Below are positions 1-63,600 of a stretch of DNA of 64,000 nucleotides, piece after piece (within the stretch, counting starts at the first letter, position 1; the number at the start of each line of letters is the position of its first letter). Under the pieces are notes generated by a model. The model was not told where the DNA came from. It worked only from the letters and a program-made list of their open reading frames with translations, and made no database searches. The translations under genes and the position numbers were made by a program. The stretch comes from Eledone cirrhosa (taxonomy: Eukaryota), in NCBI GenBank assembly GCA_964016885.1, contig OZ024740.1, positions 352,470,001 to 352,534,000 of the forward strand, written 5' to 3'.

Positions 1-2510
1 GCCAATGTGGACATGGACAAACCGCATCGGGTCATCCAGATCATATCTAGATAGGGTATTTTGTAGGGAAATAGATAGGTCTAGCATAGGCTGTTCACAT
101 TTCAAAATAGTCGACTACACGGACCACAAATTCGTGATCTGTGAGGTTGACTTAGATAGGTTCATAGACAGGGACCCCCGCTACTGGAAGCTGAACGCGT
201 CATTGACAGCACGCAAGGCCTACAGAGACCGGATTAGCGAATTAGTTAGCGAGCGTTGACGGGGACCATCGTCGACAACAAATGGTGGTTTGCTCTGAAA
301 AGAGCGATTAGAATAGAGTCCATTACGTTTAGTAAGGTTTTAGCAATAGAGAAAAATAGAGCAGAAGGAGAACTAGTTAGAAAATTAGACGAGGCGCTTA
401 GTAAAGGCATCGTGACTGACGTACTTGCGGCGAAATTGGCCCTTGATTAATTCTTCAATGCAAAGCACGAAGGGTGCGTGCTCTCAGACACGAGGGGATG
501 AAAGCCGTTCAATGGGCCCGAGTGGCGGAGGCGCGTCGTGGCAACAAAGCCAAGGATCCGGTCTTTGGTGGACCACGACGGGCGCATGCTACTCGATCCC
601 GGGCAAATGTGTGAAGCTTTTCAGCGACACTTCGCTCAGCTGTTCGGGGGCAGCGGCAGGCCGGATCGAGAGATGGACTTTAGTGTCTACCTCGACGGAG
701 TGTTGCAAAAAACCGATAACAGCCGCTGAAGTACGGGAGGCAGTGACTGGCTGCACAAGGGGTAAATCGCCTGGTTTGGATGGTCTGCCCTATGAACTTT
801 ACGTACAGATGCCAGACTTGTTCGGAGGCTTCTTTGCGGACGTCTACTTCAACTGGCAACAGAATGGGAGAATTCCCAGCTCTGTGAGCCGAGGAGCGGT
901 GGCGCTGCTGAGAAAGGATCCGAAAAAGGGGGATCACATAGATAATTTCAGGCCCATAACTCTGTTCAATATTTTGGCCAAGGTGCTAGCAAAGAGGTTG
1001 GCGCTTGTCGTTGGTTGTATGGTGGGAGAGGCGCAGACATGCGCCATTCCAGACTGATCTATCCACGACAACCTCCACCTCATGCGATACATTGTGGAGA
1101 GGGTACCTAGGGAACTTGGCACGGGTGGGTCCTTGATCAATTTAGATCAGTCGAAAGCTTTCGATAGGGTCAACCATCTTTATATGGCGGCAGTCCTGAG
1201 GGCGGCTGGCTTTGGGCCCGTCTTCAGAGGCTGGATCACTGCCACGCACAGCGACATCTGCTCTGTGGTGAGAGTGAATGGTCTCCTTTCGGAACCGTTC
1301 AACATCATGTACTCGGTCCGCCAAGGATGTCCCCTCTTGTACGTATTGACTCTCGTGCCATTACTGCACAAACTGGAGACGTGGGAGGTCCCGCAAGAAC
1401 TAGGATGCGGAAGATCCATGTCAGCATATGCGGACGATGTCACCGTAGTGGTGTCGAACCCCAAACACATCGAGGTGATCGGCACTACACTAAGAGAATA
1501 CGAAGCGGTGACAGGAGCAATGACCAACCAGGAAAAGTCGGTGGGCTTGCAGTTCGGCACCTGGAGAGGCAGGTCCATGCCGTCCAACAGCGTCGTCTGG
1601 CGCTGGACGGACGGACCGGTTAAATTGCAAGGGGTCAAAAAATTGCTAGACGGATAAAAACTGGGATGAGGTGACGAGTAGGGTGGCTTCTCTCACCCAG
1701 AAATGGGCGGAGAGGAAGCTATCCCTGAAAGGTCGAGCGGAGGTGGCGAACACGTACTTCGCGTCCGTCATCTACTACCGCCGAACCTTCGTGCCTTGTC
1801 CTAAGCCTCGCCTGACTGCGCTGGAGCGTTTGCTCTTTCGCTTTTTGTGGAAGGGACGCACTCCAATGGTCAGGCGGTTCATCTGCTGTCAACACTCATT
1901 ACGTGGAGGGCTGGGCATGCCGTGGCTGATGATGTGCGAAAATCTGCTGTCGCGTGTAGGACGGATCCGGCTATCAGCTGAGTCCATCGTGAGGATTGCC
2001 CCGCCCTCTTCCTTTAGCCGGGAAGGGCAGGCAGTTTTTATCTGTTTGGTGGCCATGGCGAAAGAGATAGTATGGTGGATGCGTTTGAAAGGGCTGAAGA
2101 CGAGCACTTACCTCTTCGGTGATGCCCTGATTAACTTTTTCAAATTACATTTGAAAAGGAAAATCAGGGTAGAGAGGGAAGTGCTCTCTTCCCAGCATTT
2201 TGTTGAAAGATGGGTGAGAGAGGCAAGAATGGGCCTACTCTGATTATGTGCCTGTAAATTATAGGTGGAAAACTGGGAGAGAGCACTTGCCCTGGTGGTC
2301 AAGGTCACCATGGCTTTTTTAATGGGCTTTCTCCACGAATGTCCCTCCTATTGGGGAATTTTTCATTGTTTCTTTTCTGTTACATCCTCTGTTTTTTTTT
2401 GTTTTTTATTTTACTTGCAGAAATGCCCATTTGTACTATCTTATACTGTCCTTAATGTCTTACTTTGTGTAAACCCTTGTGGTTAATAAAGAAATCATTA
2501 TTATTATTAT
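1..2510 (+). mobile_element. Decayed L1/Tx1-clade non-LTR retrotransposon (end of APE endonuclease, RT, C-terminal region, 3' tail); begins before the window
   Basis: Frameshifted ORF pieces carry YLDRVF/TDHK (endonuclease end), WKLNASL, KSPGLDGLPYELY, NFRPITL, LDQSKAFDRV, VRQGCP, YADD, LSLKGR and RGGLG. It ends in aataaa plus a (tta)n tail near 2486-2510. Confidence 0.9.
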
Positions 2511-5560: not shown

Positions 5561-7098
5561 GCACGCATCATCAATCAGACTATATACGGCAGGATCATAC
5601 CCAAAGACTGGTGCAGCAGTATTCTCATAAATTGCTACAAAGGTAAAGGGGATGCTCTGGAGAGGAGCAATTACAGGGGCATAAAAAACTGATGGATCAG
5701 GTCATGAAAGTGGCAGAAAGGATATTAGCACAACTAATTAGAGAAAGGGTCAACCTAGATGAGATGCAGTTTGGTTTTGTGCCTGGGAAAAGTACAACGG
5801 ATGCCCTTTTCTTAGTGAGACAATTACAAGAGAATTTCTTAGAGAAGAAAGCCACTATACTTAACTTTTGTTGACCTAGAGAAGGCCTTTGATAGAGTAC
5901 CCCGATCTGTCAACTGGTGGTCCCTAAGGAAGCTGGGTGTTGAGGAATGGCTTGTGAGGACAGTGCAAGCTTTGTACAGAGGTGCTGTCAGTAAAGTGAT
6001 GGTAGGAATGGAGTTTAGTGAAGAATTCCAGATACAAGTAGGAGTACATCAGGGTTCAGTCCTCAGCCCGCTCTTGTTCATTATAGTCCTCCAAGCCATA
6101 ACAGAGGAGTTTAAGACTGGCTGTTAATGGGAACTTCTCTATGCTGACGATCTGGTTCTTATAGCAGAATCGGTAGAGGAGCTGGAGAATAGATTCTGGC
6201 TATGGAAACAGCAGTTGAAATCAAGAGGACTGAGAGTGAACCTAGCTAAGACAGAAGTGTTGATGAGTAGAAAAGAGGACAAAACTCTGATTCCATCAGG
6301 GAAATGGCCATGTTCGATATGCAAAATAGGAACTGGCATAAATTCTATAAAATGTACACAATGCAGATCTTGGGTATACAGGAGATGTAGTGGGATAGCA
6401 GGCAAACTAACAGGTAGGGAGAAATACGTATGCAGTAGATGTACAGGGAACTTTGACAGTAGAAGTCGCATTGATAGACACATTTTTCAAATGCAGGTGG
6501 GTGCTATAGAAGTGGTTTATAGCTTCCGGTACCTAGGTGATCAGATTAGCATGGGAGGGGAGTGTTCCGAGGCCATAGTATCTAGAATAAGGTTGGGTTG
6601 GAAGAAGTTTAGGGAGCTGCTGACGAAGAAGGGTTTCTCCCTACGAACGAAAGGCCGGTTATATGATGCCTGTGTGAGGTGCGCGATGCTGCATGGTAGT
6701 GAGACATGGGCAGCAACTGCAGAGGATATGCGACAGCTGGAGAGAAATGAGGCAAACATGCTCCATTGGATGTGCAATGTGCGTGAATGGCCGAGCATGG
6801 ATGTGTTGAGAGAGAAACTGTGTCTGAGAGGGATAAATTGTTGTGTGCGGGAGAGGAGACTGCGATGGTATGGGCATGTGATGCGCATGGAGGATGACCG
6901 ATGGGTGAAGAAGTGCCAAGAAATACCAGTTGAAGGAAGACGACGAAAAACATGGGCGGAGTTGGTGAGAGCGGACTTCAGATCGCTGAAGCTCACGGTG
7001 GAGATGACAAAGGACCGTGACAAGTGGAGAGATGCTGTGCTGAATAGGACCCGTCCAACCCTTGCAAGCAGGGAAAAGCGGACGTAAAATGATGATGA
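5561..7098 (+). mobile_element. 5'-truncated RTE-clade LINE (RT, Cys-rich insert, C-terminus), disrupted
   Basis: NYRGIK, QFGFVPGKSTTDA, DLEKAFD, GVHQGSVLSP, YADD, LHGSETWA and RRLRWYGHV, with frameshifts and stops. It ends cccttgcaagcagggaaaagcggacgtaaaa(tga)n. Confidence 0.9.
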
Positions 7099-39426: not shown

Positions 39427-39769
39427 CTAATAGAAAATAGCAATTGAAACAGAACAAGTTTTAAGAAATATATTTTGTCATTTTTACAAAATTGCTGTGT
39501 TCACTCTGTAAAGTAGTAGTGGTAGAGTTATGATAAAATATACTCAGCCCCCTCTGTAAGGTGGTAGTGAATGTGCCATGATAAAATACACAAGTTTGTT
39601 TTGAGGAATACCAGCAATGCCCATCTTATGACAACAAGCTGTTGGTTAAAGTATTAAGCTCAATAAATAACACAATACAATCTATTTTCATTTCAGCAAA
39701 AAAGAATTTATTCAAGAAATGGTTAACTAAAATGAAATTAAAAGAAAAAAAACAATTATATAATGTTAG

Positions 39770-42119
39770 AGTAGACTATCAAGTGGCCAGGAGGGAAGCT
39801 AGGAGAGAAGTGTACTTAGCAAGAAGGGAAGCGGAGGAAAGAAAGTTCAAGCATGTTCTACAACGCGATGACCAAAAACGTGAGGTGTTCAGGATTGCCA
39901 GGCAATGCGTCAAGGAAAACCGTGATATTGTCGGGGAGAAGTGTGTACTTAACGATGATGGTGTACTTGCCATCACCGACACTGATAAGAAGGTAGCTTG
40001 GAAGTGTCACTATGAAAGGCTACTAAATGAGGAGAATAAATGGGAGAAAGACAGTCTCCCCCATATCGACCCGATAGAGGGACCAGCAGTGTTAGTCGAG
40101 GGGAGTATAATAAGTAAGGCAATCAAGGATATGAAGACTGGTAAGGCGGCTGGGCCTTCGGAAATAGTTGCTGAGATGCTGAAGGCATCTGGCACGGTGG
40201 GACACACCATGGTCACCCGCATAGTTAACCAAGTCGTACAGAATGGGGTTGTTCCGAAGGACTGGCATAGCAGCATCATCGTTAACTGTTATAAGGGTAA
40301 AGGAGACGCCCTAGATAGGAGTAACTATAGAGGCATTAAATTAATCGACCAGGTCATGAAGGTCACGGAAAAAGTAATAGCGCAACTAATCAGAGAGAGA
40401 ATTGATCTAGATGAAATGCAGTTCGGGTTTGTGTCAGGCAAAAGCACCACAGACGCTCTTTTCATAGTACGACAACTACAGGAGAAGTACCTAGCTAAAG
40501 GTAAACCCCTCTACTTAGCTTTTGTCGACCTGGAGAAAGCCTTCGACAGAGTCCCCCGCTCCATTATCTGGTGGGCTCTTAGAAAACTAGGCGTTGACGA
40601 ATGGCTTGTGAGGGCTATACAAGCCATGTATAAAGAAACAGTCAGCAAGGTTAGAATTAACAACGAATATAGTGAAGAGTTTAGCGTAAAAGTTGGCGTC
40701 CATCAGGGCTCTGTTCTCAGCCCCCTACTATTTATTATTGCCCTTCAGGCTATAACAGAGGAGTTCAAGACAGGCTGCCCATGGGAACTCCTATACGCAG
40801 ACGACCTGACACTCATAGCGGAATCAATGGCCGAGCTAGAGAAGAAATTCCAAACATGGAAGCACGGCCTAGAGTCAAAAGGACTTAAAATTAACCTGGC
40901 TAAGACCAAAGTTCTAGTTTGTAGGAAAGAAAACAAGGCGGCGGTCCCTTCTGGGAAATGGTCGTGCTCGGTATATAGGAAAGGCGTAGGTAGAAACTCC
41001 ATCTTATGTCCTAAATGCAAAGTATGGGTGCATAAAAGATGTAGTGGGATCACAGGTAAGCTAACTAAGAACATAGACTTTACATGTGGCCGATGTTCTG
41101 GTGCAATAAGTAGCAGCAAGTGCCCACAAAATACTAGCTCTTTCAATTGCGCAGAGGGTTCTATAGAAATAGTGGACAGCTTCCGTTACCTGGGCGATAA
41201 AATCAGCAGTGGGGGAGGGTGCTCTGAAAGTACTGTAGCTAGAGTCAGAACTGGTTGGAAAAAGTTCAGAGAGCTTATACCACTATTAGCTGCTAAAGGG
41301 TTCTCCCTAAAAATGAAAGGCAGGTTGTACGATGCCTGCATACGAACAGCAATGTTGCATGGTAGTGAGACCTGGGCATTGTGTGCAGAGGATATACGCA
41401 GACTAGAGAGGAACGAAGCTTGCATGCTCCGCTGGATGTGTAACAGTAATATACGTGAACGGCAAAGCATAAACGAACTAAGGAAAAAATTAGAGATAAG
41501 AGGGATCAGATGTTGTTTACTCGAGAGAAGGCTGCGTTGGTATGGACACGTGATGCGCATGAAAGTCGATAGCTGTATTACAAAGTGCAGGGCAATAAAG
41601 ATAGACGGTAGCCACGGAATAGGCAGACCTAGAAAAACATGGGATGAGCTGATAAACTCCGACCTCATACACTTACACCTCTCCAAGACAATGTCACTGG
41701 ACCGTGACCTTTGGCGGTACTCAGTAACAGAGAAGACCCGCCTTGCCAGTAGGCATCTCTAACAAACTACACCCCGTCCCGCCACCACCCCCACCCCATC
41801 CACACCACCCCGTTCCATGTAAAGTTATGTTGGTGCCGCGCCATCCAGGCCGAAACAAACGAGATCGTGTAGGTGTCACGACAAAAAAACACACAGTCCA
41901 CGCTGTAATGTGGCCGTGTAGGCAACACGGTAAAAACCTCCCAGACCCACACTGTAAATGTGGTTGGTGTTAGGAAGGGCATCCAACTGTAGAAAACCTG
42001 CCAGACAGTCCTATGCGAGCAAGACAATCACTCTTGCCTCAAGTGGGACTACCCCCGTCCAAACCCATGCAAGCGTGGAACACGGACATTAAACGTTGAT
42101 GATGATGATGATGATGATA
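39770..42119 (+). mobile_element. Young 5'-truncated RTE LINE with an open RT-to-C-terminus frame, in an ACOT8-like intron (antisense to the gene)
   Basis: The frame is uninterrupted to 41762, with RT motifs (AFVDLEKAFD, GVHQGSVLSP, YADD) and a Cys/His-rich insert, then a 3' UTR and (gat)n tail. There is no endonuclease region. Confidence 0.95.
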
Positions 42120-49340: not shown

Positions 49341-49540
49341 NNNNNNNNNNNNNNNNNNNNNNNNNNNNNNNNNNNNNNNNNNNNNNNNNNNNNNNNNNNN
49401 NNNNNNNNNNNNNNNNNNNNNNNNNNNNNNNNNNNNNNNNNNNNNNNNNNNNNNNNNNNNNNNNNNNNNNNNNNNNNNNNNNNNNNNNNNNNNNNNNNNN
49501 NNNNNNNNNNNNNNNNNNNNNNNNNNNNNNNNNNNNNNNN
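49341..49540. other. Assembly gap (200 N)
   Basis: Run of n characters. Confidence 1.
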
Positions 49541-49580
49541 TACATATATATATATACATACATATATATATATACATACA

Positions 49581-49612
<32 letters not shown>

Positions 49613-49725
49613 CATATATATATATACATACATATATATATATACATACATATATATATATACATACATATATATATATATACATATATATATACATATA
49701 TATATACTAATACATATATATATAC

Positions 49726-49772
<47 letters not shown>

Positions 49773-50054
49773 CATATATATATACATATATATATATATA
49801 CATATATATATATACATACATATATATATACATACATATATATATATACATACATATATATATATACATACATATATATATATACATACATATGTATATA
49901 TACATACATATATATATACATACATATATATATATACATACATATATATATACATACATATATATATACATACATATATATATATACATACATATATATA
50001 TACATTCATATATATATATACATATATATATATATACATATATACATATACATA

Positions 50055-50109
<55 letters not shown>

Positions 50110-50226
50110 ACATACATATACATACATATATATATACATACATATATATATACATACATATATATATACATACATACATATATATATACATACATATATA
50201 TATACATACATACATATATATATACA

Positions 50227-50260
<34 letters not shown>

Positions 50261-50733
50261 CATACATATATATATATATACATACATATATACATACATA
50301 TATACATACATATATATATACATACATATATATATACATACATATATATATACATACATATATATATACATACATATATATATACATACATACATATATA
50401 CATACATATATATATACATACATATATATATACATACATATATATATACATACATATATACATACATATATATATACATACATATATATATACATACATA
50501 TATATATATATACATACATATATATATATATACATACATATATATATATACATACATATATATATACATACATATATATATATACATACATATATATATA
50601 TACATACATATATATATATACATACATATATATATATACATACATATATATATATACATACATATATATATATACATACATATATATATATACATACATA
50701 TATATATATACATACATATATATATATACATAC

Positions 50734-50766
<33 letters not shown>

Positions 50767-51098
50767 CATACATATATATATACATACATATATATATACA
50801 TACATATATATATACATACATATATATATACAAACATATATATATACATACATATATATATATACATACATATATATATACATACATATATATATATACA
50901 TACATATATATATATACATACATATATATATACATACATATATATATATACATACATATATATATATACATATATATATATACATACATATATATATATA
51001 CATACATATATATATATACATACATACATACATACATATATACATACATATATATACATACATACATATATATATACATACATATATATATACATATA

Positions 51099-51169
<71 letters not shown>

Positions 51170-51741
51170 ATATACACATACATATATATATATACACATA
51201 CATATATATATATATACATATATATATTTACATATATATATATACATACATATATATATATATACATACATATATATATATATACATACATATATATATA
51301 TATATACATACATATATATATATATACATACATATATATATATACATACATATACATACATATATATACATACATATACATACATATACATACATACATA
51401 TACATACATATATATACATATATACATACATATATATACATATATACATACATATATATACATATATACATACATATACATATATATATACATATATATA
51501 TATACATATATATATATACATATACATATATACATATACATATATACATATATATACATATACATATATACATATACATATATACATATATACATATACA
51601 TATATACATATATACATATACATATATACATATACATATATACATATACATATATACATATACATATATACATATATACATATACATATATACATATATA
51701 TATATACATATACATATATATATATACATATATATATATAC

Positions 51742-51781
<40 letters not shown>

Positions 51782-51934
51782 ACATATATATATATACATA
51801 TATATATTATACATATATACATATATATATATACATATATATACATATACATATATATACATATATATACATACATATATATATATACATATATATATAT
51901 ACATATATAAATATATATATATACATATATATAC

Positions 51935-51965
<31 letters not shown>

Positions 51966-52014
51966 CATATATATATACATATATATATATACATATATAC
52001 ATATATACATATAC

Positions 52015-52059
<45 letters not shown>

Positions 52060-52318
52060 CATATATATATACATATATATATATACATATATACATATAT
52101 ATATACATATATATATACACATATATATATACACATATATATATATACACATATATATATACATATATATATACATATATATATATACATATATATATAC
52201 ATATATATATACATATATATATATACATATATATATACATATATATATATACATATATATACATATATATATATACATATATATATATACATATATATAT
52301 ATACATATATATATATAC

Positions 52319-52363
<45 letters not shown>

Positions 52364-52542
52364 CATATATATACATATATATATATATACATACATATAC
52401 ATATATATACATACATATATATATATACATATATATATATACATACATATATATATACATACATATACATATATATACATACATATATATATATACATAC
52501 ATATATATATACATATATATATATACATACATATATATATAC

Positions 52543-52573
<31 letters not shown>

Positions 52574-52773
52574 CATACATATATATATATACATACATAT
52601 ATATATACATACATATATACATACATACATATATACATACATACATATATACATACATATATACATACATACATATATACATACATACATATATACATAC
52701 ATACATACATACATACATACATACATACATACATACATACATACATACATACATACATACATACATACATACA

Positions 52774-52807
<34 letters not shown>

Positions 52808-52921
52808 CATACATATATATATACATACATATATACATACATACATATATACATACATACATATATACATACATACATATATACATACATACATATATAC
52901 ATACATACATATATACATACA

Positions 52922-52955
<34 letters not shown>

Positions 52956-53451
52956 CATACATATATACATACATACATACATATATACATACATACATAT
53001 ATAAATACATACATATATACATACATATATACATACATATATATATATACATACATATATATATATATATACATACATACATACATATACATACATACAT
53101 ACATACATATACATACATACATACATATACATACATATATATATATACATACATATACATACATATACATACATACATACATACATATACATACATACAT
53201 ACATACATACATACACATACATACATATATACACATACATACATATATACATGCATATATATATATACATACATATATATATACATGCATATATATATAT
53301 ACATACATATATATATACATGCATATATATATATACATACATATATACATACATATATATATACATGCATATATATATATACATACATATATACATACAT
53401 ATACATACATACATATATATATATACATACATATATATATATACATACATA

Positions 53452-53483
<32 letters not shown>

Positions 53484-53636
53484 CATATATATATATACAT
53501 ACATATATATATATACATACATATATATATATACATACATATATATATATACATACATATATATATATACATACATATATATATATATACATACATATAT
53601 ATATATACATATATATATATATACATATATATATAC

Positions 53637-53683
<47 letters not shown>

Positions 53684-53965
53684 CATATATATATACATAT
53701 ATATATATATACATATATATATATACATACATATATATATACATACATATATATATATACATACATATATATATATACATACATATATATATATACATAC
53801 ATATGTATATATACATACATATATATATACATACATATATATATATACATACATATATATATACATACATATATATATACATACATATATATATATACAT
53901 ACATATATATATACATACATATATATATATACATATATATATATATACATATATACATATACATA

Positions 53966-54020
<55 letters not shown>

Positions 54021-54197
54021 ACATACATATACATACATATATATATACATACATATATATATACATGCATATATATATATACATACATATATACATACAT
54101 ATATATATACATGCATATATATATATACATACATATATACATACATATACATACATACATATATATATATACATACATATATATATATACATACATA

Positions 54198-54229
<32 letters not shown>

Positions 54230-54364
54230 CATATATATATATACATACATATATATATATACATACATATATATATATACATACATATATATATATACAT
54301 ACATATATATATATATACATACATATATATATATACATATATATATATATACATATATATATAC

Positions 54365-54411
<47 letters not shown>

Positions 54412-54693
54412 CATATATATATACATATATATATATATACATATATATATATACATACATATATATATACATACATATATATATATACATACATATATAT
54501 ATATACATACATATATATATATACATACATATGTATATATACATACATATATATATACATACATATATATATATACATACATATATATATACATACATAT
54601 ATATATACATACATATATATATATACATACATATATATATACATACATATATATATATACATATATATATATATACATATATACATATACATA

Positions 54694-54748
<55 letters not shown>

Positions 54749-54865
54749 ACATACATATACATACATATATATATACATACATATATATATACATACATAT
54801 ATATATACATACATACATATATATATACATACATATATATATACATACATACATACATATATACA

Positions 54866-54899
<34 letters not shown>

Positions 54900-55337
54900 C
54901 ATACATATATATATATATACATACATATATACATACATATATACATACATATATATATACATACATATATATATACATACATATATATATACATACATAT
55001 ATATATACATACATATATATATACATACATACATATATACATACATATATATATACATACATATATATATACATACATATATATATACATACATATATAC
55101 ATACATATATATATACATACATATATATATACATACATATATATATATATACATACATATATATATATACATACATATATATATACATACATATATATAT
55201 ATACATACATATATATATATACATACATATATATATATACATACATATATATATATACATACATATATATATATACATACATATATATATATACATACAT
55301 ATATATATATACATACATATATATATATACATACATA

Positions 55338-55369
<32 letters not shown>

Positions 55370-55527
55370 CACATATATATATATATACATACACATATAT
55401 ATATATACATACATATATATATACATACATATATATATATACATACATATATATATATACATACATATATATATATACATACATATATATATATATACAT
55501 ACATATATATATATATACATACATATA

Positions 55528-55568
<41 letters not shown>

Positions 55569-55613
55569 ATACATACATATATATATATACATACATATAT
55601 ATACATATACATA

Positions 55614-55654
<41 letters not shown>

Positions 55655-55696
55655 ACATACATACATATATATATACATATATATATATACATACAT
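49541..55696. repeat. Giant compound (TA)n/(TACA)n microsatellite, at least 6.1 kb
   Basis: Almost purely ta/ca dinucleotides, with block-wise changes in motif mix. Confidence 0.98.
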
Positions 55697-56533: not shown

Positions 56534-56792
56534 ATATATATACATATATACACACACATATATATTAATAACAATAATAATAATAACAACAACAACAATA
56601 ATAATAACGACAACAACAATAATAATATACATATATATCTACACACACACACACACACGATAGCAACTAACAGCGCTGCGATCGAATGTGGCTTTTTAGC
56701 CCAGCCAATGATCTAAAATGTCTTGCACATACATACATACATATATATATATACATACATATATAATTATATACATACATACACATACATAT

Positions 56793-56823
<31 letters not shown>

Positions 56824-56859
56824 CATACATATATACATACATACATACATATATATTAG

Positions 56860-58253
56860 AGTAAACATTGATGCAATTCAATTCAAGCACTCAACGTACT
56901 TTTTCCACATAGGAGTGACGGAGTAAATATCGAATAAGGAAAAGCGAAGTAGTTTCAGATGTTCAAGTCCTTTAATAATAATGCTGTGATATATATTTCA
57001 GTGACGACACTGGCCACACTGTTCTGTGTGCGAGTGTCGTGTCATCATCAGACAGCTTGTTACATAATAAGGTTATGTTTCCGAGGCAATCCAAATTGGA
57101 TCGACAAGGGAACGGATGAATTGCGTGTTCTTGGGTTTTTCATCCGCTCCCTTGTGAGCACCAATTCACCCCCACCGGCCTGCGCAAGCACATGTCCGAA
57201 GGAAGTTGACCATTCGCCACCGCAGACTTCAACGAAATTTGCTTAGTCAGTTCACCCTGTCATCCAAAACAATGGCCCACCAATGCCTGTACCATATTTT
57301 ACTGCTACCCATCACGGCTGTGGCAGTCAGTCGAGAGCCAGAGGGGATGGGAGAGTGTTAGTTTTTACAGGTCATAATACTACCCCTCACTAAGCGTTGA
57401 CGGTACGACTAACCATCACCTTATTAGGGAAAATAAACTTATTCTAGGTATCATGGTTTTACGTTGGAAGTTAAGAGTGAGAGTTGGAAATAAAAATTAA
57501 AATCCTAAATCAAATATCAGAAATTATAAATTAAACAATTAAGAAATTAACAATTAGAAATTAAAGAATTAAAAAAAGAATTTAAAAAAATTCTCTTCAG
57601 GTGATAATTCGGATTGAGGTGAGTAAATAATATAGAGAGAGGTGTTTAAGTAATATGTTCTGAGAGGGATTCTAGTGTCACAGTTACTCTATCCACATTG
57701 AACGACGGTGTCGTACATTATAACTACAGGGCTCCAGGCATTAGTGAATCTGGTACACAGTCCTAATTTCCATCACATGGAACAAAATCAAAGAAAAACA
57801 GACATAAAGTACACAAAAGAAAAGAACAGAACCAACAGTGAATAAATGCAAAAACACAGAGTACATATATGATCCATATGATTGTCCATCTGTCCATGTA
57901 TAGATTGAATTGAGGGGGCCTCTGTTCAAGTGCGATTTGGTGCAGGAAAATAGGGGTTTATCCTATTATTTGTTTCCGCGTATTTATCCTGCCGAAAGTT
58001 ATTATGTCCGTCCAGTGTAAGGGGTTTCCATCCCCATGGTAGAGGGAATTTCCGGGGTAGCTTATGGTTGGTTCCTCTCTTCTCCACCATATCGGTTACA
58101 TCGTAAAGCGCTCAACTATTGGAGCTAAATTATTAGGGTAAACATTGATGCAGTTCAATTCAAGCACTCAACGTACTTTTTCCACATCGGAGTGACGGAG
58201 TAAATATCGAATAAGGAAAAGCGAAGTAGTTTCAGATGCTCAAGTCCTTTAAT
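56860..58253 (-). mobile_element. Hammerhead-bearing non-coding element, left copy (1277-bp unit plus ~115-bp terminal direct repeat)
   Basis: The block gtaaacattgatgc...gtcctttaat occurs at 56861 and 58138. This copy is the reverse complement of 58261-59912. Confidence 0.75.
56983..57056 (-). ncRNA. Type I hammerhead ribozyme-like motif (left copy)
   Basis: Exact reverse complement of the motif at 59784-59857. Confidence 0.6.
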
Positions 58254-58374
58254 CAAATCCTATTATTAAAGGACTTGAACATCTGAAACTACTTCGCTTT
58301 TCCTTATTCAATATTTACTCCGTCACTCCTATGTGGAAAAAGTACGTTGAGTGCTTGAATTGAACTGCATCAAT

Positions 58375-58720
58375 CATCATCATCATCATCATCATTTCAT
58401 TTTACGTCCGCTTTTTCCCTGCTTGCAAGGGTGGGACGGGAATGATGCTGGCTTGATTTCTACAGCTGGATGCCCTTCCTAACACCAACCTCATTTACAG
58501 TGAGTGCTGGGTGCTTTTTTGCCGTGGCACCTCCACGACCACTTTGCAGTGGAATGATAGGGACCGCAATCCTATCATCTCATTTCTACAGCTGAGTAAA
58601 CTGGAGCAATGTGAAATAAAGTGTCTTGCTCAAGGAAACAACACATCACCCGGTCTGAGAATTGAACTCACAACCTTTCGATTGCAAGGCCAATGCTCTA
58701 ACCACTAAGCCATGTGCCTC
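58375..58720 (-). mobile_element. tRNA-derived SINE with RTE-derived 3' tail
   Basis: On -, the head has A box tggcttagtggt and B box gagttcaattc. The tail cccttgcaagcagggaaaaagcggacgtaaaatga(tga)n matches the RTE end at 7058-7098. The insert is flanked by caat/caat. Confidence 0.85.
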
Positions 58721-59783
58721 CAATGTTTACCCTAATAATTTAGCTCCAATAGTTGAGCGCTTTACGATGTAACCGATATGGTGGAGAAGAGAGGAACCAA
58801 CCATAAGCTACCCCGGAAATTCCCTCTACCATGGGGATGGAAACCCCTTACACTGGACGGACATAATAATAACTTTCGGCAGGATAAATACGCGGAAACA
58901 AATAATAGGATAAACCCCTATTTTCCTGCACCAAATCTATACATGGACAGATGGACAATCATATGGATCATATATGTACTCTGTGTTTTTGCATTTATTC
59001 ACTGTTGGTTCTGTTCTTTTCTTTTGTGTACTTTATGTCTGTTTTTCTTTGATTTTGTTCCATGTGATGGAAATTAGGACTGTGTAGCAGATTCACTAAT
59101 GCCTGGAGCCCTGTAGTTATAATGTACGACACCGTCGTTCAATGTGGATAGAGTAACTGTGACACTAGAATCCCTCTCAGAACATATTACTTAAACACCT
59201 CTCTCTATATTATTTACTCACCTCAATCCGAATTATCACCTGAAGAGAATTTTTTTTAATTCTTTTTTTAATTCTTTAATTTCTAATTGTTAATTTCTTA
59301 ATTGTTTAATTTATAATTTCTGATATTTGATTTAGGATTTTAATTTTTATTTCCAACTCTCACTCTTAACTTCCAACGTAAAACCATGATACCTAGAATA
59401 AGTTTATTTTCCCTAATAAGGTGATGGTTAGTCGTACCGTCAACGCTTAGTGAGGGGTAGTATTATGACCTGTAAAAACTAACACTCTCCCATCCCCTCT
59501 GGCTCTCGACTGACTGCCACAGCCGTGATGGGTAGCAGTAAAATATGGTACAGGCATTGGTGGGCCATTGTTTTGGATGACAGGGTGAACTGACTAAGCA
59601 AATTTCGTTGAAGTCTGCGGTGGCGAATGGTCAACTTCCTTCGGACATGTGCTTGCGCAGGCCGGTGGGGGTGAATTGGTGCTCACAAGGGAGCGGATGA
59701 AAAATCCAAGAACACGCAATTCATCCGTTCCCTTGTCGATCCAATTTGGATTGCCTCGGAAACATAACCTTATTATGTAACAA

Positions 59784-59857
59784 GCTGTCTGATGATGACA
59801 CGACACTCGCACACAGAACAGTGTGGCCAGTGTCGTCACTGAAATATATATCACAGC
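59784..59857 (+). ncRNA. Type I hammerhead ribozyme-like motif (right copy)
   Basis: Stem I GCTGT/ACAGC; core CTGATGA at 59789-59795; stem II TGAC(AC)GACACT/AGTGTCGTCA plus CACAC/GTGTG; GAAA at 59841-59844; palindromic stem III (A)TATATA(T); cleavage triplet ATC. Two extra nt (CT) before GAAA deviate from consensus. Confidence 0.6.
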
Positions 59858-59909
59858 ATTATTATTAAAGGACTTGAACATCTGAAACTACTTCGCTTTT
59901 CCTTATTCG

Positions 59910-59911
<2 letters not shown>

Positions 59912-59940
<29 letters not shown>

Positions 59941-59990
59941 CATACATACATACATATACATACATATACATACATACATACATACATATA

Positions 59991-60022
<32 letters not shown>

Positions 60023-60257
60023 CATACATATATATACATACATACATATATACATACATACATATATACATACATATATACATACATACATACATACACA
60101 CACATACATACACACACATACATACATACATATACATACATACATATACATACATACATACATATATATATACATACATACATATATATATACATACATA
60201 CATATATATATACATACATACATATATATATATACATACATACATACATATACATAC

Positions 60258-60291
<34 letters not shown>

Positions 60292-60300
60292 ACATACATA

Positions 60301-60332
<32 letters not shown>

Positions 60333-60394
60333 CATATATATATACATACATACATATATATATACATACATACATATATATATATATACATACA

Positions 60395-60426
<32 letters not shown>

Positions 60427-60511
60427 CATACATACATACATATATACATATATATATATACATACATACATACAGATACATACATATATATATACATACA
60501 TACATATATAT

Positions 60512-60544
<33 letters not shown>

Positions 60545-60625
60545 TACATACATATATATATACATACATACATATATATATACATACATATATATATACA
60601 TACATACATACATATATATATATAC
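59912..60625. repeat. (TACA)/(TA) microsatellite
   Basis: Direct inspection. The same strand motif lies at 56725-56856 on the other side of the palindrome. Confidence 0.97.
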
Positions 60626-63600
60626 ATCATCATCATCATCATCATCAGGTTTAGCGTCCGTGTTCCACGCTTGCATGGGTTTGGACGGGGGTTTTCCCAC
60701 TTGAGGCAAGAGTGGTTGTCTTGCTCGCATAGGACTGTCTGGCGGGTTTTCTACAGTTGGATGCCCTTCCTAACACCAACCACATTTACAGTGTGGGGCT
60801 GGGAGGTTTTTACCGTGTTGCCTACACGGCCACATTTACAGCGTGGACTGTGTGTTTTTTTGTCGTGACACCTACACGATCTCATTTGTTTCAGCCTGGA
60901 TGTTGTGGCACCAACATAACTTTACATTGAAAGGGGCGGTGTGGGTGGGGTGGAGGGACGGGGGGGGGGGGGGTTTGATAGAGATGCCTACTGACTGTAG
61001 TAGGTTTTTACTTTGTATTTAGGTAAGGCGGGTCTTCTCCATTACTGAGTACCGCCAAAGGTCTCGGTCCAGTGACATTGTCTTGGAGAGGTGTAAGCGT
61101 GTGAGGTCGGAATTTATCAGCTCGTCCCATGTTTTTCTGGGTCTGCCTACTCCGTGGCCACCGTCTATCTTTATTGCCCTGCACTTTGTTATACAGCTGT
61201 CGTCTTTCATGCGCATCACGTGACCGTACCAACGTAGCCTTCTCTCGAGTAAACAAAATCTGATCCCTCTTATTTCTAATTTTTTCCTTAGTTCGTTTAT
61301 GCTTTGCCGTTCACGTATATTACTATTGCACATCCAGCGGAGCATGCAAGCTTCGTTCCTCTCTAGTCTGCGTATATCCTCTGCACACAATGCCCAGGTC
61401 TCACTGCCATGCAACATTGCTGTTCGTATGCAGGCATCGTATAACCTGCCTTTCATTTTTAGGGAGAACCCTCTAGCGGCTAATAGTGGTATAAGCTCTC
61501 TGAACTTTTTCCATCCAGTTCTGACTCTAGCTACTGTACTTTAAGAGCACCCTCCCCCACTGCTGATTTTGTCACCCAGGTAACGGAAGCTGTCCACTAT
61601 TTCTATAGAACCCTCTGCGCAGTTGAAGGAGCTAGTATTTTGTGGGCACTTGCTGCTACTTATTGCACCAGAGCACCGGCCACATGTAAAATCTATGTTC
61701 TTAGTTAGCTTACCTGTGATCCCACTACATCTTTTATGCACCCATACTTTGCATTTGGGACATAAAATGGAGTTTCTACCTACGCCTTTCCTACACACTG
61801 AGCATGGCCATTTCCCAGATGGGACTGCCGCCTTATTTTCTTTCCTACAAACTAGAACTTTAGTCTTAGCCAGGTTAATTTTAAGGCCTTTTGATTCTAG
61901 GCCGTGCTTCCATGTTTGGAATTTCTTCTCTAGTTCGGTCATTGATTCAGCTATGAGCGTTAGATCATCTGCGTATAGGAGTTCCCATGGGCAGCCGGTC
62001 TTGAACTCCTCTGTTATAGCCTGAAGGGCAATAATAAATAGTAGGGGGCTAAGAACAGAGCCCTGATGGACACCAACTTTTACGCTAAACTCTTCACTAT
62101 ATTCGTTGTTAATTCTAACCTTACTGACTGTTTCTTTATACATGGCTTGTATAGCTCTCACAAGCCATTCGTCAACACCTAGTTTTCTAAGAGACCACCA
62201 GATAATGGAACGGGGGACTCTGTCGAAGGCTTTCTCCAAGTCGACGAAAGCTAAGTATAGGGGTTTACTTTTAGCTAGGTACTTCTCCTGTAGTTGTCGT
62301 ACAATGAAAAGAGCGTCTGTGGTACTTTTGCCTGACACAAATCCGAACTGCATTTCATCTAGATCAATTCTCTCTCTGATTAGTTGCGCTATTACTTTTT
62401 CCGTGACCTTCATGACCTGGTCGATTAATTTAATGCCTCTATAGTTACTCCTATCTAGGGCATCTCCTTTTCCCTTATAGCAGTTAACGATGATGCTGCT
62501 ACGCCAGTCCTTCGGAACAACCCCATTCTGTACGACTTGGTTAACTATCCGGGTGACCATGGTGTGTCCACCGAACCAGATGCCTTCAGCATCTCAGCAA
62601 CTATTTCCGAAGGACCAGCCGCCTTACCCGTCTTCATATCTTTGATTGCCTTGCTTATTGTACTACCCTGGACTAACACTGCTGGTCCCTCTATTGGGTT
62701 GATGCGGGGGAGACTGTCTTTCTCCCATTTGTTCTCCTCATTTAGAAGCCTTTCGTAGTGACACTTCCAAGCTACCTTCTTATCAGCGTCGGTGATGGCA
62801 AGTATGCCATCATCGTTAAGTACACACTTCTCCCCGACAATATCATGGTTTTTCTTGACACATTGCCTGGCAATCCTGTACACCTCACGTTGTAGAACAT
62901 GCTTGAACTTTCTTTCCTCTGCTTCCCTTCTTGCGAAGTACACTTGTCTCCTAGCTTCCCTCCTGGCCACCTGATAGTCTTCTCTACTTCCCCCATCCCG
63001 CCATGCTTTCCAAGCCTGCTTTTTGGCCTTAATTGACTCCTCCACCTTACTGTTCCACCACCATGTTACTCTCCTCCTACCTACAAGCCTGCTCCAGCCA
63101 CAGACTTCATCTGCCGCCGTCAGCAGGTTTGCTCTCAGGAATTCCCACTGTTCCTCTATATTATACGACTCTAATTGCTCTTCCTTACTGTCGAAAGCGT
63201 CAAGTAATATGCTTTGAAATTTATTTCTGACTATGGGGTCCTTTAGCTTCCATATTTTTCTCCTGAGGATAGTCCTCTTCCGCTGTCTAGTACGTCTCGT
63301 CCTGACTATGAGGTCGCTAATTATCAGTCTATGTTGGGAGGTGAATTCTTCATGGGGGAGGGATTTAGTGTTAACAACAGACACTCTGTCACGTCTTCTG
63401 GTAAGGATATAATCTACCTGGCTTGTGTGTTCCCCCGATCTATAGGTGATCAAGTGATTGTCTCGTTTTTTGAAGTTAGTGTTACAGATAGTTAAGTTAT
63501 TTGCGTCGCAGAATTCCAGGATTCTGGAGCCTTCCTCATTTCTAGTACGAACCCGTAGCCTCCATGGATTCCGTCATAGCCGTCACAATGTTGTCCAACG

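Follow-up and report, generated by a model that had tools for sequence, protein, structure and literature searches.

Does a hammerhead ribozyme trim the RNA that is copied into the genome, and can such trimming be read from the ends of an insertion? This question is raised by a large inverted repeat in the window, which denotes the whole 64-kb stretch of DNA analyzed here. The repeat is centered on positions 58254-58260, and both arms run outward in hammerhead-sense orientation. It consists of two head-to-head copies of a non-coding 1,277-nt unit (58253-56976) placed in a (TACA)n/(TA)n microsatellite, of which both flanks are parts; the DNA outside the flanking microsatellites is unrelated on the left and on the right. 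The features of the locus are as follows.

56727..56855, no strand: left target flank, (ACAT)n/(TA)n microsatellite (TRF and junction)
56854..58253, minus strand: left arm, the 1,277-nt unit plus 123 nt repeated (sequence comparison)
56854..56927, minus strand: 74-nt 'tail' of the left arm only, between two recurrent family 3' ends
56983..57056, minus strand: candidate left-arm minimal type I hammerhead motif, intact, with the predicted cut at 56988/56987
58131..58253, minus strand: left-arm head, a second copy of 56854-56976 with 4 differences in 123 nt
58254..58260, no strand: 7-nt junction patch, templated insertion
58261..59912, plus strand: right arm, one unit plus 53 nt repeated (sequence comparison)
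58375..58720, minus strand: later SINE insertion in the right arm
59683..59739, plus strand: 17-bp hairpin directly upstream of the hammerhead (fold -28.2 kcal/mol, z -6.3)
59784..59857, plus strand: candidate right-arm minimal type I hammerhead motif (descriptor and fold)
59858..59866, plus strand: (ATT)3 tract following helix I; the 5' ends of both arms lie in their copy of this tract
59910..60622, no strand: right target flank, (ATAC)n/(TA)n microsatellite (TRF and junction)

Each arm carries one hammerhead motif near its 3' end, and the arms terminate 134 nt (left) and 60 nt (right) past their downstream predicted cut. A mirror of the 17-bp hairpin is located near 57102-57157 (-) in the left arm. 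The arm bodies are near-identical, with 3 substitutions in 1,189 aligned nt, and the right-arm unit is altered by a 31-nt deletion, a 3-nt extra TAA and the SINE insertion. The SINE comprises a tRNA-like head (58655-58712; tRNA match of 28.1 bits, E 0.005, just below the cut-off of 29), a (CAT)n end and a 4-nt CAAT duplication. An assembly artefact was considered and rejected, because the arms differ by the SINE, both indels and the substitutions; the match of both outer arm ends to family ends, described below, is a further argument against it. In addition, a near-perfect 231-nt palindrome with a 7-nt spacer (58144-58374) is still present in the genome; the larger inverted repeat of 3 kb is no longer symmetrical because of the SINE at 58375, which may have stabilized the palindrome. 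Within the unit, a long U-rich tract leading into TTTAG (59250-59336, +) resembles a 3' splice site. Penelope-like elements (PLEs) retain introns; no skip was found at this tract among the read joints listed.

Elsewhere in the window, positions 49341-55693 contain a 6.1-kb (ATAT/ACAT)n array preceded by a 200-N gap, and LINE copies are located at 39585-41759 (+), 61022-63573 (-) and 6128-7084 (+). The latter two presumably represent RTE-like elements, and the two LINE frames that were scanned (61544-62593 and 6128-7084) yielded an RVT_1 match followed by a PHD-finger match. A broken non-LTR reverse transcriptase of another family is present at 416-2240 (+) (RVT_1, E 3e-11, 1058-1654). Nothing was found that would link the LINE copies to the hammerhead element. 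By its repeats, the window has the character of animal DNA and would be similar to that of an octopus.

The right-arm motif is composed of a 5-bp helix I (59784-88/59853-57), the CUGAUGA box (59789-95), a helix II region of 45 nt (59796-59840), the GAAA box (59841-44), a palindromic helix III (59844-51, an 8-nt AU palindrome) and C17 at position 59852, after which the cut is predicted. The minimal type I criteria comprise the CUGANGA and GAAA boxes, an NUH triplet, a helix I of 4-5 bp and a palindromic helix III, all of which are present. A loose hammerhead descriptor matched the 64-kb window (both strands) only at the two copies of this motif, and it matched 1 of 5,000 dinucleotide shuffles of the unit. 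A search against Rfam revealed no hammerhead at the gathering score or at E<=5, and its miRNA-family matches were rejected, as they merely represent the center of the palindrome. The G10.1-C11.1 pair is absent, with U, not C, preceding GAAA, and in the best fold the core is separated from an 8-bp helix II by 4 unpaired nt on each side. Closure of helix II by a G-U pair lies 4.4 kcal/mol above the best fold, and the family-majority letter at 57001 (378 of 405 reads of the public run X9) permits a weak two-pair closure 2.8 kcal/mol above it. The three-way junction computed for the dimer reaches -26.7 kcal/mol versus -29.0 kcal/mol for the best fold, and helix I (-5.2 kcal/mol) pairs with a probability of 0.65-0.88 (4 of 5 pairs) in the uncut context. 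Judged by its sequence, the predicted motif is a non-canonical variant of the minimal type I hammerhead without G10.1-C11.1, a pair described as highly conserved in PLE minimal hammerheads (PMC4209133), and the fold models render self-cleavage plausible. The same source reports poor cleavage of minimal PLE hammerheads in vitro, and 8 of 9 Xenopus retrozyme dimers are given as lacking cleavage (bioRxiv 10.64898/2026.07.22.740005).

In the right arm, the first letters, at 58261 (+), are TATTATTAAAGG and correspond to position 59860; the 7 nt at 59853-59859 that follow the predicted cut after the C at 59852 are missing. The left arm likewise opens with ATTAAAGG at 58253 (-), and here the 11 nt after its predicted cut are missing. 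These coordinates and the omissions of 7 and 11 nt, first pointed out in an earlier note on this DNA, held on recheck, the unit being 1,277 nt in length. Both breakpoints fall within the (ATT)3 tract 3' of helix I. The spacer at 58254-58260 together with one T on each side is a direct copy, with 1 mismatch, of the 9-mer at 58240-58248. This patch source lies 13 nt away, and an equal match was reached by 1.5% of random fillers (200,000 trials). The flanking Ts may belong to the patch, in which case the losses amount to 7-8 nt and 11-12 nt. Neither arm extends exactly to the cut, and offsets of 7 and 11 nt are as compatible with a stop at +6 as with a run-off at +1. The earlier note had further read the two ends as support for a functional motif; ends near the cut do provide a lead in this direction, but the base of helix II is non-standard and the hammerhead is a predicted one.

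To place the ends in the context of the family, 4 of 11 listed public sequence runs (X1, X4, X5 and X9) were aligned to one unit (56860-58130). The best runs share about half of the sampled words, indicating that they contain a related family form rather than the copy studied here. In X1, 2,616 contigs align to the unit. Loose ends running into (TA)n were observed before 56861 in 37 contigs of X1 and before 56927 in 19, and X5 showed 3 and 1 contigs at or near 56861 and 56927, respectively. Both outer arm ends at the locus, 134 and 60 nt past the cut, therefore coincide with two recurrent end positions of the family leading into (TA)n, as twin priming predicts. The second arm thus also ends at a family site, which favors two separate cDNAs. 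This is the reading that we consider probable, and a single cDNA that snapped back the less likely one.

A snap-back is part of the explanation by coincidence, in which one cDNA stopped at random and folded back, or the DNA itself folded back, so that the two ends would represent one chance event. R2 provides a documented case of snap-back after cDNA synthesis (PMC11371274), the arm bodies are near-identical, and many features had been examined in the earlier note. Yet under uniform truncation the chance is 0.9% (11/1277) even if the ends are one event, and 7e-5 if they are independent, the 11-nt window for this estimate having been picked post hoc, after the data had been seen. Moreover, the second arm terminates exactly at the second recurrent 3' end of the family, the flanks beyond the microsatellites are unrelated, and the two arm heads differ at 3 of 110 nt (Fisher p 0.01 versus the body). 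Finally, a snap-back from a run-off end would still require a template ending at this site. We therefore regard coincidence as very improbable, the least probable of the explanations weighed here.

The differences between the heads extend to all three head copies (58131-58253, 58261-58374 and 56854-56976), which contain 5 private changes in 3 x 123 nt versus 0.47 expected from the body, i.e. about ten times those in the arm bodies. This excess may reflect different templates, or conversion between the arm bodies. The arm differences were rejected as proof of two templates, since arm-to-arm conversion or later mutation would have the same effect.

The earlier note had named 5' ends scattered along the unit as a finding that would speak against a ribozyme-generated end. 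Among the joints listed (15 of 21), 3 switch strand; their ends lie 4/107, 25/78 and 88/126 nt beyond the first cut. These inverted junctions are indeed scattered, but all three copies are short, and they neither reach the second cut site nor stop at the first. No pile of ends was observed at 56976-56987 among the loose ends listed (24 of 403) or among the same joints. The tail and hammerhead exceed the body about 21-fold in summed contig depth, an excess that is due to truncation, subfamily divergence or both, and the long arms are accordingly probably a small minority of the family. Across the cut, depth drops to 0.53 (X1), 0.90 (X5) and 0.86 (X9) and rises 2.7-fold in X4 (16 contigs in total), whereby contig depth is no copy number and the depth of X9, a RAD run, is shaped by restriction sites. 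Over 20 bins of the body, X1 depth follows no trend (Spearman rho -0.18, p 0.45), giving no sign of stops that increase towards the head. The evidence for a ribozyme-cut template is thus one insertion, and it is not confirmed by the family data.

Several further observations were made in these runs. In X1, X5 and X9, family depth falls at the upstream hairpin near 57117, beyond which 28 contigs carry on in diverged form; this fall may represent a stall of the reverse transcriptase (RT) or a subfamily boundary. A sister subfamily (189 X9 reads and a trace in X4) shares the sequence up to the helix I 5' strand and CUGAUGA, followed by a different helix II (57045-57117), which suggests, as far as the sequences go, an exchange of hammerhead modules or fast turnover of helix II. 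Correspondingly, 9 'skip' joints ending at 57043-57065 were rejected as truncations and would rather stem from the sister subfamily with the other helix II. The read-end piles of X9 were likewise rejected, as 6 'end' piles among those listed (7 of 15) lie at AATT sites and one listed 'begin' pile is a single read length away from an AATT site. A pattern scan for the hammerhead element gave 0 matches in metagenome contigs and 0 in viral contigs, and the sole match in genome contigs was rejected as a 20-nt chance match with nothing else similar.

Given that the offsets fit a stop at +6, RT may have stalled on uncut RNA at the folded upstream hammerhead, whose helix I spans +1 to +5, with ends at about +6 subsequently trimmed by 2 and 6 nt. 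The pairing of helix I in the uncut context agrees with such a stall, unprocessed RNA is reported as the main substrate of the anole PLE protein PAc in vitro (PMC11167929), and the fall in depth at the upstream hairpin may mean that the enzyme is structure-sensitive. However, a 5-bp helix is a doubtful obstacle for an enzyme that, in both arms, passed the far stronger hairpin of -28 kcal/mol and the identical hammerhead downstream, and family depth remains high beyond the first hammerhead in X1, X5 and X9. We consequently consider a stall unlikely.

The position of both breakpoints in the (ATT)3 tract, the longest of 6 such tracts in the unit, could also indicate that the junction was made in DNA, with a GIY-YIG endonuclease or repair trimming longer cDNAs in this tract without any cleavage of RNA. 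In line with this, PAc is described to favor 5'-ATT-3' and to cut both strands, its own pLTR included (PMC11167929), and endonuclease resolution has been suggested to shape PLE ends (Craig et al., PMC8557442). In contrast, the identical tract is intact at 56974-56982 and 59858-59866, i.e. in both arms, and the unit offers 44 ATT and 40 AAT trimers. To this explanation we assign a lower probability than to the stall. Insertion of an arm into the tract of an older copy was excluded, as both arms are joined to the microsatellite at their 3' ends and the flanks lack a cut-off hammerhead.

Alternatively, the RNA may have begun at this site for other reasons, namely by a transcription start after the hammerhead or through a junction inherited from a truncated or inverted source copy. 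The helix III palindrome resembles a TATA box, which is expected to direct a start about 30 nt downstream; however, the arm 5' ends follow the first T of the TATA-like run by 15 and 19 nt and so lie upstream of the expected start, and a TATA-directed start was rejected because these ends are too near. Rotifer pLTRs are described with TATA-like and initiator motifs and with head-to-head junctions formed by self-priming (PMC3846280), but at this locus no hairpin is predicted at the cDNA 3' end (-0.1 kcal/mol). Moreover, transcription of the D. virilis Penelope is reported to start at position 371, with an intron at 416-491 (PMC2377424), and helix I begins at the intron end (PMC4209133). The mapped start is therefore located about 120 nt upstream of the hammerhead, and a promoter-defined end would include the hammerhead. 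An inherited junction would merely shift the question to the source copy. Together, these possibilities appear improbable, ranking below a cut at the DNA level.

The earlier note had proposed that the template carried a ribozyme-generated 5' end and that the downstream hammerhead was read through. This proposal stands as the best single explanation, as it fits the geometry, whereas its evidence is one insertion whose ends are perhaps not independent. We hold it, at slightly better than even confidence, in the following form: reverse transcription was initiated 3' of a downstream hammerhead that had stayed uncut and proceeded to run off at a 5' end produced by the ribozyme, and the ends were trimmed and joined through a templated patch. 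The architecture, the end positions, the family 3' ends and the patch are directly seen, and from them we infer cleavage of the template RNA by the ribozyme. The template would be a linear RNA of more than one unit, cut at the upstream hammerhead site and uncut at the downstream one. Since helix III, an 8-nt AU palindrome, cannot form alone, the downstream catalytic strand could cut the upstream site in a double-hammerhead fold; after this cut it would be left without a partner, so that the product would be a linear RNA cut once. As the family start sites are located 3' of the downstream hammerhead, a copy longer than 134 nt can arise only if this hammerhead is uncut. A PLE protein acting in trans would insert the non-autonomous element into a (TA)-rich microsatellite, where both target strands would be nicked and would prime cDNA at the start sites of the family, located 134 and 60 nt beyond the downstream cut. 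The AUA sites at the outer ends match the microsatellite over about 3 nt. The end positions themselves are seen; the priming at two start sites follows by analogy with the biochemistry of PAc, which is reported to nick and extend both target strands and to start at two internal sites, to which the tail was traced (PMC11167929).

Both cDNAs would then extend for about 1.3-1.4 kb over the hammerhead, the hairpin and the 1-kb body to the 5' end of the RNA, lose 7-8 and 11-12 nt, and be joined through the short templated patch, possibly by end joining of the polymerase-theta type, with the SINE inserted later. Short templated patches are typical of polymerase-theta end joining. Variable junctions are also left by R2 elements that are cut at their own 5' end (PMC3774820). 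Rolling-circle copying of a ligated circle, on the other hand, predicts no stop at the cut. For PAc, on the other side, hammerhead mutants are reported to insert normally in vitro, cleavage being dispensable, and its RNA-seq to contain no reads beginning or ending at the cut (PMC11167929).

The role of the hammerhead in endonuclease-bearing PLEs is described as still unclear (PMC8557442), and retrozymes are currently modeled as being copied from a circular template (PMC4209133, PMC7229834). The locus thus offers a single-event hint that the debated PLE hammerhead trims the RNA copied into the genome. Tentatively, and with somewhat less than even confidence, we suggest that the hammerhead may be a device for one-sided 5' processing in vivo, in that its downstream copy would cut the upstream site and stay intact, generating a linear 5'-OH RNA that keeps the RT start sites, and twin-primed copying to the cut end would produce unit-length head-to-head inserts. 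If this is true, the activity of PLE hammerheads could be read from genomic 5' junctions, which would then speak against a circular template in elements of this kind. Should the long copies of this high-copy family be found to end at the cut, counting them in a genome would be enough to demonstrate that the ribozyme is used in vivo, and a linear, singly cut template would be favored. The architecture and the element class are already known. A literature search, thin on subscription papers, revealed no published mapping of PLE or retrozyme genomic 5' ends to the hammerhead cut.

With respect to its class, the sequence features identify the element as a non-autonomous PLE derivative near the non-LTR retrozymes. 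The signature of PLEs combines two recurrent 3' ends and a tail confined to one arm with an inverted 5' copy and insertion into (TA)n (PMC8557442; PMC3846280). At the locus, this signature takes the form of a partial tandem head to head with an inverted 5'-truncated copy, an optional 74-nt tail between the recurrent 3' ends in one arm only, and an AT-rich/(TA)n microsatellite as target. The arms contain no RT or GIY-YIG ORF, their longest stop-to-stop frames being 106 aa, and a Pfam scan of 8 arm frames gave no match better than E 0.37. In common with retrozymes, the element is a multicopy non-coding unit with a putative type I hammerhead. No two consecutive head-to-tail units with hammerheads are present at the locus, each arm having one.

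Compared with known systems, the locus resembles Penelope/Poseidon, Neptune and Naiad as they are described in PMC8557442, PMC3846280 and PMC11167929, with head-to-head inverted arms, more than one unit per arm and a tail on one arm. It further shares with endonuclease-bearing PLEs the two 3' ends, the (TA)n target and a minimal hammerhead upstream of the tail. Unlike in these elements, an RT/GIY-YIG ORF is absent, the tail measures 74 nt versus 30-40, and both arms exceed the unit length and stop at the cut site. The motif likewise corresponds to the minimal hammerheads of PLE pLTRs (PMC4209133) in its CUGANGA and GAAA boxes, 5-bp helix I, 8-bp helix II and a palindromic helix III that requires a dimer, and the pairs of minimal hammerheads on opposite strands noted in PLE pLTRs by the same source are found here as well. 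It differs from them by the missing G10.1-C11.1 pair and the 4 nt unpaired per side at the base of helix II.

With the animal non-LTR retrozymes (PMC7229834; bioRxiv 10.64898/2026.07.22.740005), the element has in common the lack of coding capacity, a type I hammerhead, a GC content below 45% and ends of the PLE type, and both are presumably mobilized in trans. In contrast, the unit comprises 1,277 nt versus 150-450 nt in PMC7229834 and 51-972 nt in bioRxiv 10.64898/2026.07.22.740005, which searched periods of <=1,000, and with one hammerhead per arm it falls outside what the latter source terms 'active'. The logic of the evidence is that of R2 with its 5' HDV-like ribozyme, in which genomic 5' junctions track the ribozyme cut (PMC3774820); however, R2 carries another class of ribozyme, is autonomous, site-specific for rDNA and single-armed, and its cleavage is shown in vitro. 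Compared with the circular template proposed for retrozymes, the end positions at this locus are better matched by a linear, singly cut RNA.
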